Virus record (IMG/VR): IMGVR_UViG_2778261009_000004
Origin: a virus
Lineage: Duplodnaviria > Heunggongvirae > Uroviricota > Caudoviricetes
Length of the DNA stretch: 28,707 bases
Strand: one strand, 5' to 3'
This document shows positions 6,006 to 10,576 of the stretch, piece by piece. The notes below the pieces were generated by a model, which searched no databases, was not told the origin of the DNA, and worked only from the letters and a program-made list of their open reading frames with translations. The first letter of the stretch is position 1; every line of letters starts with the position of its first letter. A program made the position numbers and the translations under genes.

Positions 6006-9000
6006 TACCGATATGCTCCACTTAACCGACCACCATCACGGGCCTGCTGTTGCATAAAGTCCGCTGCCGCTTTTTTCCCAAGGTCATAAACCACCTTCAG
6101 GGCAGCCGGACCTATCTGCCCGTTCGTGCCATCGTTATTGATCTCGATGTTGTACTGCGGGGCAAACATCGCCATACCTGAACCACCAATATCCGCCACA
6201 ACCCCCAGCTTACCGTCAGCACCACGACGCAGAGGCAGAATGGCTTCAGGTCCCGCTTCACCCATCACACCCGCGCCTTTTGCAAAAGCAAAAAACGTCG
6301 GACGGTTAACCACCGTGCCACTGTAACGACTCAAATCAGCAGACTGATAAATCCCCCCATTGGCATTCAGGGAAAGGCTGCTGAGATCAAATCCCAGTAC
6401 ACTGCCAATCCCTTTTATCGATTTCATCATGGTTGCCTGCGCCAGGATTTTCGCCATATCTGACAGCACAGAAGAGGTGAAGGATTTGAAATTGAGTTTG
6501 CCGGTAGTGACAAAAGTTGCCAGGCCATTTCCCATGTTGCTGAAGGCTGACGAGAACACCTGTTCTGCTGTTCCTGCCGTATTATCTGCATCCACGGTAA
6601 AATCCTGAAATGCACGCAGGACTCCGTTTTTCCAGTTACCCTGCACAACTTCAAGCTGTTGCCAGTAACGGCGATTCTCATTCAGTTGTCGGTTCAGGCT
6701 CTCCGTCAGCGCCTGCTCGGCCTTTCTGTAGTCATCCGTGTTATATGTCCCTTTCTGCTCACTATCCCGCCTCAACTGCTCCAGCTGTTGCTGGTATTTC
6801 TGGCGAAGACTCAGTTGTACCTGATATCGCTGCCGCTGCTGATCACCCATACCCACCGTGGCGATATCCAGGTCATGTTGCTGACGCTGAGCGCGCTCTT
6901 CTTCAGCCAGTTGACTGGTCAGCTGAATTGTTTTTTTCTTCAGATCGTTGAGTGCCGTCTGTTTCTGAAGCTCCTGCTGTTTTACATCCAGCAGCGTCAG
7001 TGCCTGAATCAGTTCATCTTTACGGGCCAGCACACTCTTTTCATCTGCCGTCAGTTTTTTCCCGTCCAGATCGCTGATGCGCTGCTGCAGAGCCAGAAGC
7101 TGTTTATGCGCTTCTGTCATCTTTTCAGTGGCAATGCCTGCTGACTGTCTTGCAGCAGCAATCTGTCCTTCCACCTGTGCCTGTTGCTGACTGTACTGCA
7201 GCAATAACCGGGTGGCCTCATCATTACGGGTTTCGCGTGTTTTTTTCTTACCGGATGCCAGGGCTTTCTCGTAACGTTCATTTTCACGTTGTATCGCTGC
7301 ATCCCTGACAGCCTGATCGGCGTACTGCATGGAATTAATACGCGCAATTTCACGCTGATGTCGTGCTGCTTCCGTTTCATTCATCCGGTTCAGTGCAGCA
7401 TTTTCAGCATTACGTCGTTTCTGTTGCTCCTGATAATTCCGCTCTGCCTGCTCTTTTGCATCCTGCAAATCCTTCTTGCGTTTTTTCTCCTGAAGCTCGT
7501 TAAGACGCTGCTGATCGTACTCAACCTGAGAAGATGATGCCGTCCAGGGGAGTCTTTTCGCCCGCGACACTTTCTCCTGTAAAGCGGAAATCTGTTCATC
7601 CAGCGAGTCTTCACGACCAATATTCATGGCCGCATCCCAGAAACGACTCCATAAATCAGACAGATACTTCAGCGTACTGCCCAGCGCATTGAGGTTATTA
7701 TCAATATCCGCAGTACGCCGACCGGTTTCCTCTGCCAGTGCAGACATGGCTATCCGTGCCGCATCACTGGACCGCCCCTGTTCCCCAAGGACGCGTATCT
7801 GCTCAAGCTGAGTGGCAGTAAGAAAATGCAGCTCATTGTCCAGAGCCTTCGCGGCATTTACAGGATCATCCTTCAGCCGCTTAAACTGATTTATGGTATC
7901 GCTGACCGACTGGCCAACCGATCGCTCCATCTGTGCGGCAGCTCTCGCCACCATACCGATATCGTTTCCACGAAATGCACCACTCCCCACCACCTGAGCC
8001 AGCGCACCGGCTGCAGCATGTTGCGTAATACCATTCCCGGAAATAGCACGACTGAGCGTCCACAGCTGCCCGGCAGTGACTCCGGCATAATGCCCCGTCA
8101 GCGACAACTGGCGGTTAAATTCTTCCCCCTCCTTCTGACCATCATACCAGGCTTTACCCAGACCATAGACGGCCGCGGCAATACCGCCAATAACCCCGCC
8201 CAGCATCATGCCTTTCGGTGACATCAGTGTGTCTATCCATCCGGCACGGTTAGCCAGCGTTATCCCGGATCCCCTCAGCGCATCTAAATTGCCGCGAGCC
8301 AGTTCACCTATCAGAACGCCTATCTCCTGGCGGGCCGCTGCACTTTTCAGACCCAGCGAATGCGTGGCTTTTCCTGCCTGCTCCATTTTGCGGATATACA
8401 CTTCTGCAGCACTGCTTACCCCCAGCTGGGCAGGCTTAGCACGAAGCAACTCAGAAGAAGAAAGATTCTGGCGGGTTGCCTGCTCTTTAAGCTGACGGAT
8501 AAACGCCACTTTCTGTCGGGTAGCCTCTGCCTCAGCCTGCGTAAGAACACCGGTTTTCGCCGTAACCTCAGAAATCAGCGCCAGATAATCCTGCTGACCA
8601 ATCCCGCCACTGTTTCTGGCCTGTCGGATCTGCTGCTGAATACGCTGTAATTCCTGCAGTCCCGCACTGGCCTGTTTCACACTGTCAATCTGACGATAAA
8701 ACGCGGCAGCCGCTTTATCCTGAGCCTCCGCCAGAGCCATGGCCTGCGCCTGTTCCTCGCGCATTTTCTGGCTCAGTGCCTCCATACGCTGGCGGGTTTG
8801 CTCCACCTCGCGGGCCATGCGTTCATGAGCCTGTGCGCTCTTCTCCACCGTCTGCGCATGGACGGATGCGGCTGTTGCAGCCGAAGAAGCCGCCTGCATT
8901 GTCTGCCGGGCGGCCTGAGTCTGACGCTCCATAAAACGCTGCATACGGGCAGAAGACCGTTCTGCATCGCTGGCTGCACCATTCAGAAGGTTTTTGATAC

Positions 9001-9070
9001 GGGGAATTTCATTTTTAAACTCTGCCGCATCAATCCCCAAATCAATGACCAGGTTGGCTATCTGGTCCAT
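6005..9070 (-). CDS. H: Tail tape measure protein (H-like)
   Basis: C-terminus INNDGTNGQIGPAALKVVYDLGKK...DGGRLSGAYR matches the lambda H C-terminus as remembered. Long coiled-coil, Q/A/E-rich centre and a Gly-rich hydrophobic segment. The track ORF begins at a TTG (9100); the first ATG (9070, MDQIANLVIDL...) has SD GGAGGTG 7 nt upstream and is the likelier start. About 1021 aa, versus about 853 aa for lambda H. Confidence 0.9.
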   Translation of the reverse strand: MDQIANLVIDLGIDAAEFKNEIPRIKNLLNGAASDAERSSARMQRFMERQTQAARQTMQAASSAATAASVHAQTVEKSAQAHERMAREVEQTRQRMEALSQKMREEQAQAMALAEAQDKAAAAFYRQIDSVKQASAGLQELQRIQQQIRQARNSGGIGQQDYLALISEVTAKTGVLTQAEAEATRQKVAFIRQLKEQATRQNLSSSELLRAKPAQLGVSSAAEVYIRKMEQAGKATHSLGLKSAAARQEIGVLIGELARGNLDALRGSGITLANRAGWIDTLMSPKGMMLGGVIGGIAAAVYGLGKAWYDGQKEGEEFNRQLSLTGHYAGVTAGQLWTLSRAISGNGITQHAAAGALAQVVGSGAFRGNDIGMVARAAAQMERSVGQSVSDTINQFKRLKDDPVNAAKALDNELHFLTATQLEQIRVLGEQGRSSDAARIAMSALAEETGRRTADIDNNLNALGSTLKYLSDLWSRFWDAAMNIGREDSLDEQISALQEKVSRAKRLPWTASSSQVEYDQQRLNELQEKKRKKDLQDAKEQAERNYQEQQKRRNAENAALNRMNETEAARHQREIARINSMQYADQAVRDAAIQRENERYEKALASGKKKTRETRNDEATRLLLQYSQQQAQVEGQIAAARQSAGIATEKMTEAHKQLLALQQRISDLDGKKLTADEKSVLARKDELIQALTLLDVKQQELQKQTALNDLKKKTIQLTSQLAEEERAQRQQHDLDIATVGMGDQQRQRYQVQLSLRQKYQQQLEQLRRDSEQKGTYNTDDYRKAEQALTESLNRQLNENRRYWQQLEVVQGNWKNGVLRAFQDFTVDADNTAGTAEQVFSSAFSNMGNGLATFVTTGKLNFKSFTSSVLSDMAKILAQATMMKSIKGIGSVLGFDLSSLSLNANGGIYQSADLSRYSGTVVNRPTFFAFAKGAGVMGEAGPEAILPLRRGADGKLGVVADIGGSGMAMFAPQYNIEINNDGTNGQIGPAALKVVYDLGKKAAADFMQQQARDGGRLSGAYR

Positions 9071-9769
9071 AACGCACACCTCCGGAAATACCTTCCCCAA
9101 GATGCATCAGTTCTTCGTCCGTTCGCTCCGGTATCCCGTTCTCTTCCGGTAAAAGGCTGAAATCAGCCACCGCAGCATCACTGCTACCGGACACCATTCT
9201 CACGATCAATGCCTTCAGCGAGGCAAACTGCGCATCCATCCACACATCACTGAAGCTCTGCATCCGGAAATAATCGCCCCACTCACCAAGCTCAGTGGCC
9301 GACATTTCCGACAGCATCCGCCGCCAGTCTGCCCGCCGGAACTCCCGGGCAAGCCGCATGACAAACTGCATTTCCCGCGTCAGGACTTTTCCGGCGTCAG
9401 CACCTCATGCTCCAAATCCCCGGCATTCTCAATGACTCCCATACCGCTCAGCGACAGAACCATCTCCGCCCCCGCTCCCAGGGCATCATACGACCATGTT
9501 GTAATAACGGATGCGCAAAGCGTCTCAACATCCTGAGACTGTTCCGCATTCCACAGTGAGCGGGAAACCAGCCAGGCATTGATATCCATCCCCATCCGCA
9601 GAAAAGCAATCTGTCGTTCAGCCTCCGGCAGTTCTCCCTCTTCGGCATCAAACTTTGCCGTTCGCTGCTGAACAAACGCCAGATATTCAATTCTCTGCAG
9701 CCCGGACAGCTCACTGAGCACCACGGACTGCTTTTCATAATTAAACGTGCCCTGTTTCAGAAACATCAT
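9042..9769 (-). CDS. T: Tail assembly chaperone G-T fusion made by programmed -1 ribosomal frameshift (T segment is 9042..about 9404 in the -1 frame)
   Basis: The ORF at 9042..9371 is in the -1 frame relative to G and stays open upstream to 9404, overlapping the last 8 codons of G. The G-frame sequence just before its stop is CTG ACG CCG GAA AAG TCC TGA, with GGAAAAG at the position of the lambda G GGA AAG slip site. Confidence 0.6.
9380..9769 (-). CDS. G: Tail assembly chaperone G
   Basis: Lambda G-like N-terminus MMFLKQG...LSELSGLQRIEYL from ATG 9769 with SD GGTGGAG. The track ORF start at 9808 would encode the terminator hairpin and is probably an artefactual extension. Confidence 0.85.
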   Translation of the reverse strand: MMFLKQGTFNYEKQSVVLSELSGLQRIEYLAFVQQRTAKFDAEEGELPEAERQIAFLRMGMDINAWLVSRSLWNAEQSQDVETLCASVITTWSYDALGAGAEMVLSLSGMGVIENAGDLEHEVLTPEKS

Positions 9770-9782
9770 GTTCTCCACCTGC

Positions 9783-9806
9783 AAAAAAGCCCCGGATAAC
9801 CGGGGC
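9783..9806 (-). terminator. Intrinsic terminator / attenuator directly downstream of major tail gene V
   Basis: Minus strand: perfect 7-bp stem GCCCCGG-TTAT-CCGGGGC followed by TTTTTT, 20 nt after the V stop and just before the G SD. Confidence 0.55.
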
Positions 9807-9826
9807 AAATGATGAGTATCGTCCTG

Positions 9827-10576
9827 TTAACCTGCGGCGCTGACAGCCACCGCAGCCACTGCCACAAAATCGCCGTCAGAAGTCATGCCCACAATGCTGA
9901 CACTGCCCTGCTTCACGCCTTTCACCGTGGCCACAAGCCCGTTCAGGGTCACCGTGGCAGTCTGTGGATCTGTCGAATGCACACTGATCGCTTTGTCACT
10001 GGCTCCGTCAGGTTTTACTGTAAAGGTCAGCGTGGTGGTTGCTCCCACTTTTACACTGGCAGATGCCGGTGCCACCGTCAGCCCGGTAACGCTCACTGTT
10101 TCAGTGCCTTCCTCTGCCAGATACGGACGCCCCACACCGCTGATTTTCACTGTGCGGGTCATCACGTCTTTTGAGGCAATGGTTTTACCCAGTGAGCTCA
10201 GCCAGCCACGGAAAACATCAACAGTGCCGTTGGGATATTTGATACGAAACGCGCAGACTTCACCGGAGTCGAACAACTGAACCAGTTTTTTCTGCCCGCT
10301 GTCACCCGGACGCCAGGCCAGCGTCGCCGAAGTATCACCGACGGATTTCTGCCCCTGGGTTGTCGTTTTCCAGTCTGCATCTTCATCATCGAGATAAGTG
10401 TCATCTTCTGCATCAGCGGTCATTTCGCCAGGTTGCAGATCCTTCACCATCGCAAGACGCAGCCAGTCAGTGTCCGATAAAGGGTTCGCAAACGCATCGC
10501 CCTTGCCGGTGTACATCCAGAACGTCGTTCCCGCACCTTTCGTTTTTGCCAGTGGATTTGGTGTGGTCATTGCCAC
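9827..10576 (-). CDS. V: Major tail protein V with C-terminal Ig-like (Big_2-type) domain
   Basis: 249-aa ORF in the V position (lambda V is about 246 aa); C-terminal ...VTGLTVAPASASVKVGATTTLTFTVKP... Ig-like repeat. Confidence 0.9.
   Translation of the reverse strand: MAMTTPNPLAKTKGAGTTFWMYTGKGDAFANPLSDTDWLRLAMVKDLQPGEMTADAEDDTYLDDEDADWKTTTQGQKSVGDTSATLAWRPGDSGQKKLVQLFDSGEVCAFRIKYPNGTVDVFRGWLSSLGKTIASKDVMTRTVKISGVGRPYLAEEGTETVSVTGLTVAPASASVKVGATTTLTFTVKPDGASDKAISVHSTDPQTATVTLNGLVATVKGVKQGSVSIVGMTSDGDFVAVAAVAVSAAG

Follow-up and report, generated by a model that had tools for sequence, protein, structure and literature searches.

The window, a 28,707-nt stretch of DNA, carries a real slip sequence of the -1 frameshift type, the heptamer G GAA AAG, at the junction of the tail genes G and T. 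The original prediction of this site was right. The site is also already known, and the gene pair is an ordinary member of the G/GT family. Its sequence identifies the region as a tail-assembly-chaperone cassette (G/GT) from a lambda-like prophage, of the type of cdtI, mEp460 and Ayreon. The G-T fusion protein is very probably made by -1 ribosomal frameshifting on this heptamer. The two-frame geometry, the homology of the genes, and the position and conservation of the site are directly observed. Our understanding of the G/GT mechanism is unchanged by the site in the window.

The G/T cassette and its reading frames

Every gene in the G/T part of the window lies on the minus strand of the ORF map. 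The G/T pair is placed between the major tail gene (upstream) and the tape-measure gene (downstream), in the order V-G-T-H. The neighbouring genes were taken from the ORF map and from annotated DNA that is identical or nearly identical. The features of the cassette are as follows.

9380..9769, minus strand: G, tail assembly chaperone (translation; Pfam and NCBIfam matches; RefSeq label gpG on identical DNA)
9405..9407, minus strand: TGA closing the T frame upstream
9383..9404, minus strand: G/T overlap of 22 nt in which both frames are open
9386..9392, minus strand: slip heptamer G GAA AAG (position in the overlap, homology to the lambda site, conservation, annotation in N15 and LLS)
9042..9386, minus strand: T coding sequence after the shift; first codon GTC 9386-9384, stop 9044-9042
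9068..9083, minus strand: start of the tape-measure gene H, with ATG 9070-9068 and Shine-Dalgarno (SD) sequence GGAGGTG 9083-9077

G is recognized by the Pfam family of lambda gpG, PF06894 Phage_TAC_2 (E=7e-40, 136 bits, cut-off 27), and by the NCBIfam equivalog TIGR01674 phage_lambda_G (E=2e-55, 186.6 bits, cut-off 74.45). Two neighbouring ATGs, at 9769 and 9766, open the gene. The second is the RefSeq start, lines up with MFLK at the start of the lambda, N15 and Gifsy-2 proteins, and is better spaced than the first from the SD of G (GGAG 9776-9773). The final codons of the G frame are ...CAT GAG GTG CTG ACG CCG GAA AAG TCC TGA, so that the protein ends ...LEHEVLTPEKS at the TGA 9382-9380.

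The T frame is -1 relative to G, that is, one base 5' of it. It is open from 9404 (GGT GCT GAC GCC GGA AAA GTC CTG ACG CGG GAA ATG...) to the stop 9044-9042 and translates as GADAGKVLTREMQFVMRLAREF...GGVRYGPDSQPGH. Both frames are open only over 9404-9383, and therefore a G-T fusion can form only there. Re-reading of the frames on the minus strand thus upholds the earlier statement that T is -1 to G, is open only from 9404 and must be joined to G within the last 8 G codons. The T part comprises 114 residues and the whole fusion 241 or 242 aa; the junction reads ..TPEK/VLTREMQFVMRLAREF (the slash marks the point of the shift here and below). The conceptual fusion matches PF06223 Phage_tail_T with 54 bits and TIGR01715 phage_lam_T with E=2e-39 and 134 bits (cut-off 77.35). 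The start of H marks the downstream end of the cassette. Its SD and ATG fall within the codons for GGVRYGP, the conserved C terminus of T, so that T and H overlap by 29 nt; the H start of lambda is likewise embedded in the end of T.

The slip heptamer

The zero-frame codons of the heptamer are GAA (Glu) in the P site and AAG (Lys) in the A site, and they become GGA and AAA after a -1 move. All P/A codon pairs in the overlap 9404-9383 were enumerated for re-pairing after such a move. GAA AAG to GGA AAA is the only pair that permits it, and the enumeration yielded no other slip site in the overlap. G GAA AAG had been singled out as the only slippery-looking candidate, and with no second site among the codon pairs it stands alone. 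In the A site, the change from AAG to AAA is cognate for tRNA-Lys, bases 4-6 being identical as in the X XXY YYZ pattern. In the P site, the change from GAA to GGA leaves tRNA-Glu paired at the first and third positions and with a G.U at the second. Bases 1-3 of the heptamer are GGA and not the three identical bases of XXX, so the site is non-canonical, as had been noted from the sequence.

The tetramer A_AAG occurs in frame 13 times in the 5,615 codons (0.23%) of the 13 long minus-strand ORFs of the window; therefore 0.016 occurrences are expected per 7-codon window. The heptamer at 9392 is the sole in-frame copy of any of GGAAAAG, GGGAAAG, AAAAAAG, CCCAAAG and TTTAAAG in those ORFs.

Conservation of the site

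Diversity was sampled by tblastn of phage records, through contigs encoding homologues, and with a degenerate DNA pattern for the T motif. Contig scans with the fusion protein returned close relatives only, and viral scans keyed on the first sequence returned mostly near-identical loci. Among IMG/VR contigs matched through the flanks of the heptamer, with the heptamer itself unconstrained, GGAAAAG is kept in all 120 of 120. The heptamer shows no variation in the remaining loci of the same clade that have both G and T intact, nor among 29 haplotypes of a 181-nt segment in the window clade. Beyond the clade, G GAA AAG occupies the same position in N15, HK225, phi80, LLS, mEp213 and Gifsy-2, as in all sampled relatives of the prophage. 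It recurs in ten further lineages by one count, and by another in eight further E. coli/Salmonella lineages in which G is 55-75% identical to G of the window. An alignment of related G/T regions had been proposed as a check on the site; in it, GGAAAAG is retained across lineages that are only 35-55% identical to the window in protein sequence.

Three other heptamers occur at the homologous position in named phages: G GGA AAG in lambda, Turner, the Stx2a phages and PhiR12_5; A AAA AAG in VT1-Sakai and the Stx1 phages; and C CCA AAA in the distant Vibrio phage HY01, the only exception to A AAG among the named variants. To these can be added 90 usable new loci, obtained from an IMG/VR scan in which the conserved T motif was matched by a degenerate pattern that excluded the heptamer. 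Clustering of T at 85% identity sorts these loci into 15 groups. G GAA AAG is the heptamer in ten of the 15; G GGA AAG and A AAA AAG account for two each, and A GAA AAG for one. On these alignments the A-site A AAG is the constant element and the P-site codon the variable one. By the same counts, G GAA AAG is the commonest form in the G/GT chaperone family and not an oddity of one prophage.

Two IMG/VR contigs, 2648501177_000013 (L361) and 2703718809_000019 (L362), have a single A GAA AAG and a single A GGA AAG, respectively; base 1 of the heptamer is lost and A AAG kept. Sequencing error, prophage decay or a tolerated change could explain them. Three further IMG/VR copies (L112, L113 and L114) carry frame-breaking mutations that truncate G or T, and presumably are decaying prophages.

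Relation to known frameshift systems

The frameshift in G/G-T of phage lambda is reportedly the subject of work by Levin, Hendrix and Casjens in 1993 and by Xu, Hendrix and Duda in 2004, 2013 and 2014. The proteins of lambda and of the window are homologous (PF06894/PF06223, TIGR01674/TIGR01715), the order V-G-T-H is the same, and in both T is -1 to G. The shift sites lie at an identical aligned position and share the A-site move of Lys from AAG to AAA. In lambda, as in the family of the window, the T frame lacks a conserved start. Lambda reads ...TCT GCG GGA AAG TGT..., with the fusion ..SAGK/VFDGELSFALKLAREM, and the two junctions align as ..PEK/VLTRE.. in the window and ..AGK/VFDGE.. in lambda. 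The systems differ in four respects. (i) The experimentally defined heptamer of lambda is G GGA AAG and that of the window G GAA AAG, a single G to A change. The P site therefore holds tRNA-Glu with a second-position G.U, whereas the tRNA-Gly of lambda re-pairs cognately. (ii) The G stop lies one codon past the heptamer in the window and five codons past it in lambda. (iii) G and T overlap by 22 nt in the window and by 61 nt in lambda. (iv) The lambda/N15 branch conserves a downstream two-helix RNA fold that the branch of the window does not conserve.

The heptamer and its position are identical in N15 gp14/gp15 (AF064539), phi80, HK225, mEp213, LLS and Gifsy-2. Identity between fusion proteins is 37-39% for N15, phi80, HK225, mEp213 and LLS (36-40% by tblastn), and about 54% for Gifsy-2. 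The N15/phi80 group has five more G codons past the site and a conserved downstream helix after an 8-nt spacer. The window clade and Gifsy-2 have neither the extra G codons nor the helix, but carry GAGG 10 nt upstream. More distant parallels are E. coli dnaX and the insertion sequences IS911/IS3, which share the reliance on the shiftiness of tRNA-Lys (mnm5s2UUU) on A AAG. These systems shift with high efficiency and have proven stimulators, namely a pseudoknot or a stem-loop combined with an SD upstream, whereas the window has no supported stimulator. In IS3, the tetramer alone with a stimulator suffices (PMC4066793).

Proposed mechanism and expected efficiency

From the geometry, position and conservation of the site we infer the following course of events. 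(i) Most ribosomes would read G through to the TGA 9382-9380 and release the chaperone gpG. (ii) A small minority would step back one base on G GAA AAG 9392-9386 and read GTC CTG ACG... on to 9042. (iii) The step would be driven by tRNA-Lys, with the anticodon mnm5s2UUU, which leaves AAG for the fully cognate AAA; no other A-site move in E. coli is as prone to shifting. (iv) The P-site tRNA-Glu (mnm5s2UUC) would re-pair from GAA to GGA, the first and third codon positions forming Watson-Crick pairs and the second a G.U; both tRNAs may slip together, or Lys-tRNA alone. (v) The product would be the G-T fusion of 241-242 aa, with the junction ...LTPEK/VLTREMQF.... Homology with lambda suggests that tape-measure protein H is bound through the G part, that the major tail protein is brought in by the T part, and that G would have to be made in large excess over GT. 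In lambda the zero frame is kept about 96% of the time, and a G:GT ratio of roughly 30:1 matters for tail assembly (PMC3296357, PMC5009743).

The efficiency of comparable sites has been measured in E. coli and in vitro. Sharma 2014 placed G_GGA_AAG among the three best heptamers and found A_AAG to be the most efficient tetramer in E. coli, reaching 5.6% with the IS3 pseudoknot; the tetramer without a stimulator hardly exceeds background, at 0.147% against 0.112% (PMC4066793). G GAA AAG itself served Peng et al. 2019 as a 'less slippery' control for G GGA AAG, being judged unfavourable owing to its second-position mismatch. Translated in their reconstituted E. coli system, it yielded 'mainly the 0-frame product', while G GGA AAG shifted readily, and EF-G mutants that slow translocation increased shifting on it (PMC6924986). 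The earlier suggestion that P-site re-pairing is weaker here than in lambda agrees with these in vitro results, and the Peng and Sharma data together make the expectation sound. The shift efficiency at the window site is expected to be a few per cent or less.

Both tRNAs of the heptamer (Glu and Lys; 9386-9391, minus strand) carry mnm5s2U34, whereas in lambda the Lys tRNA alone does so. When the 2-thio group is lost, G-T shifting in lambda increases and the phage yield falls (PMC3296357); the MnmA/Tus thiolation pathway already tunes the lambda G:GT ratio. With mnm5s2U34 on both slipping tRNAs, phages of this clade may therefore respond more strongly to changes in thiolation by the host. In reconstituted and reporter systems G GAA AAG does poorly, yet most of the family uses it, and in the window clade no conserved stimulator accompanies it. 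A tentative extension, which we regard as possible but on balance doubtful, is that the GT:G ratio lies several-fold below the approximately 1:30 of lambda, or else that the native context makes the P-site G.U far more tolerable than the rules predict. In either case the ratio would be doubly tied to MnmA/Tus thiolation, because both tRNAs carry the modification.

Alternative routes to T and to efficient shifting

The following features bear on the alternatives.

9369..9371, minus strand: ATG in the T frame, the database start of T (annotations and alignments)
9401..9406, minus strand: SD-like GAGGTG, a possible weak stimulator; the core GAGG ends 10 nt and GAGGTG 8 nt before the heptamer

T might be a separate protein of 109 aa translated from ATG 9371, for example by re-initiation after the G stop, with no frameshift at all. 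This ATG begins 8 nt past the G stop, is present in every sampled member of the close clade, and is the start listed for T by RefSeq/PGAP and in the mEp460 record. Lambda, N15, phi80 and Gifsy-2 nevertheless have a Leu codon at this position, and the closer lineages L308, L310, L311 and L312 have Gln, Ile, Thr or Arg, so a separate T start is not conserved; the starts chosen by gene callers differ between lineages as well. The sole SD-like bases, GGGA, stand 1 nt from the ATG, which is too near, and there is no properly spaced SD. The T-frame residues between the heptamer and the ATG are kept as protein (GK-VL-x-x-E), unlike the tail of the G frame past the heptamer, which varies in sequence and in length from one to five codons. 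An alignment showing T independently translated from ATG 9371 had been named as evidence that would overturn the frameshift. The alignment gives no support to such a start: the codon is unconserved, the GK-VL-..-E upstream of it is conserved, and ATG 9371 was rejected as the conserved start of T. The lambda T domain is produced solely as a G-T fusion (Atkins 2016, PMC5009743). Re-initiation after the G stop is conceivable in the window clade but is not the conserved mechanism, and an independent T is very unlikely. Slippage of RNA polymerase on the A run, as a source of the fusion in place of ribosomal slippage, is less credible still and close to negligible. Nothing favours it beyond AAAA itself. 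Bacterial transcriptional slippage requires longer homopolymer runs (reviewed in PMC5009743), the run here is only four A, and what is conserved across lineages is the codon-phased A AAG and not the length of the run. Transcriptional slippage was rejected on the four-A run.

A different possibility accepts ribosomal frameshifting on G GAA AAG but supposes that the weak heptamer is offset by a dnaX-like stimulator. The internal SD-like GAGG(TG) would pair with 16S rRNA and raise shifting to lambda-like levels. SD-like motifs do occur 8-14 nt upstream of the heptamer in most lineages of the window branch. GAGG stands in the same register in the window clade, Gifsy-2, L310 and L311, and AGGTGA, GAGGTG and AGGAG lie 10-14 nt upstream in L304, L308 and L312. 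The 10-nt spacing is the same as that reportedly found in dnaX by Larsen et al. in 1994. It also falls within the 6-17 nt used by Sharma 2014 (PMC4066793). Anti-SD duplex energies were computed for 22 lineages and compared both with sliding windows and with protein-preserving synonymous shuffles. The energy in the window, -9.2 kcal/mol, is stronger than that of 93% of same-size windows in G, yet 16% of synonymous shuffles pair equally well or better. The signal is significant in no lineage, the fraction of shuffles at least as good being 0.16-0.91, and Glu, Val and Ala codons probably explain the upstream motifs. A T/C polymorphism weakens the motif: 77 of 120 contigs have GAGGTG and 43 have GAGGCG, which pairs over 4 bp instead of 6. 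The same heptamer stands in N15, HK225, phi80, LLS and mEp213 without an SD-like sequence (dG about 0). By its printed sequence, the G GAA AAG mRNA of Peng has an SD (AGGU) about 11 nt upstream, and yet gave mainly the 0-frame product (PMC6924986). A stimulator of this kind that raises shifting to lambda-like levels is improbable.

Downstream structure was assessed by MFE z-scores, synonymous-shuffle nulls with internal G/T control segments, RNAalifold and pair counts. No downstream stem-loop or pseudoknot stands out in the window clade, where the MFE z is an unremarkable -0.5 to -0.8 against mononucleotide shuffles. The fold of the lambda/N15 branch is not recovered in the window branch, in which only 57% of its pairs form and the alifold energy is -5.7 kcal/mol. 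An Rfam scan of 8900-9900 returned no family, its sole match being a chance lncRNA with E=0.22. No convincing stimulator was found in the window clade.

Distribution and existing annotation

The DNA of the region is 97-99.7% identical to Ayreon, phi458, cdtI, mEp460, Tritos and others. At an identity of at least 95%, the allele is found in 1,848 of 5,426 complete E. coli genomes, about a third, O157:H7 included. The exact allele is carried by the plaque-forming isolates mEp460, Ayreon, phi458 and Tritos.

The site has been labelled in related phages. The GenBank record of N15 (AF064539) has a misc_feature at 10027..10033, which is GGAAAAG, described as 'slippery sequence for -1 translational frameshift'. 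The LLS record (PQ299149) joins the CDS and names a 'minus-one programmed translational frameshift site GGAAAAG'. Gifsy-2 has the identical ACG CCG GAA AAG TCC TGA, with T labelled as part of a frameshift hybrid. The site is therefore familiar to phage annotators. No paper discussing the GGAAAAG site in phages was found in the searchable open full-text literature, and a search of the literature for protein or reporter data on any phage G GAA AAG site likewise returned none.

Within the clade, a joined G-T CDS is absent from all three records opened (mEp460 RefSeq, Ayreon GenBank and the RefSeq E. coli chromosome NZ_CP025856). T starts at ATG 9371 in mEp460 and NZ_CP025856 (RefSeq/PGAP) and at a later codon in Ayreon. 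The free-standing T of 109 aa (9042-9371, minus strand) in NZ_CP025856 and mEp460 has a start ATG that is lacking in other lineages. Given the sequence identity, and with one RefSeq chromosome record opened, the stand-alone T annotation is probably repeated in the 1,848 E. coli genomes that carry the allele. The clade records opened miss the G-T fusion, and a joined CDS at 9392-9386 would correct the annotation of T. A search that admits only X XXY YYZ overlooks the natural slip site that is most frequent in a textbook frameshift family. The occurrence of G GGA AAG, G GAA AAG and A AAA AAG at one homologous position offers a natural series for measuring the contribution of the P-site codon.

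RNA structures in related phages and at the cassette edge

In the lambda/N15/phi80/Stx branch, a 7-bp helix (helix A) begins 9 nt past the heptamer, after an 8-nt spacer; its partner strand is +71..+77, and a 15-bp hairpin over the LAREFGRPDWRAM codons lies inside it. The fold lies at the following positions.

L003 (lambda): 610-716
L016 (N15): 702-808
L013 (phi80): 708-814
Alignment A3: columns 19-25/81-87 and 44-59/64-79

The fold was assessed on 38 unique contexts. Six of the seven pairs of helix A form in all 38 sequences, and one pair is G-C in the lambda/Stx types and A-U in the N15/phi80 types. RNAalifold gives the structure an energy of -24.7 kcal/mol. In 21 of 21 lineages, synonymous shuffles of the first 99 nt of T fold less stably than the native sequence, whereas controls internal to G centre on zero. 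Reviews hold that lambda G-T requires no stimulator. The conserved fold, which concerns lambda and not the window site, is a hint drawn from related sequences with essentially one covarying split.

At the upstream edge of the cassette of the window lies a further element.

9783..9806, minus strand: terminator-like hairpin and T run at the boundary of the major tail gene and G

The hairpin is strong, with 7 G-C pairs and a T6 tail, and sits inside the late operon. Transcription of G/T/H would drop there relative to that of the major tail protein. The same terminator-like element is annotated in mEp460 and N15.
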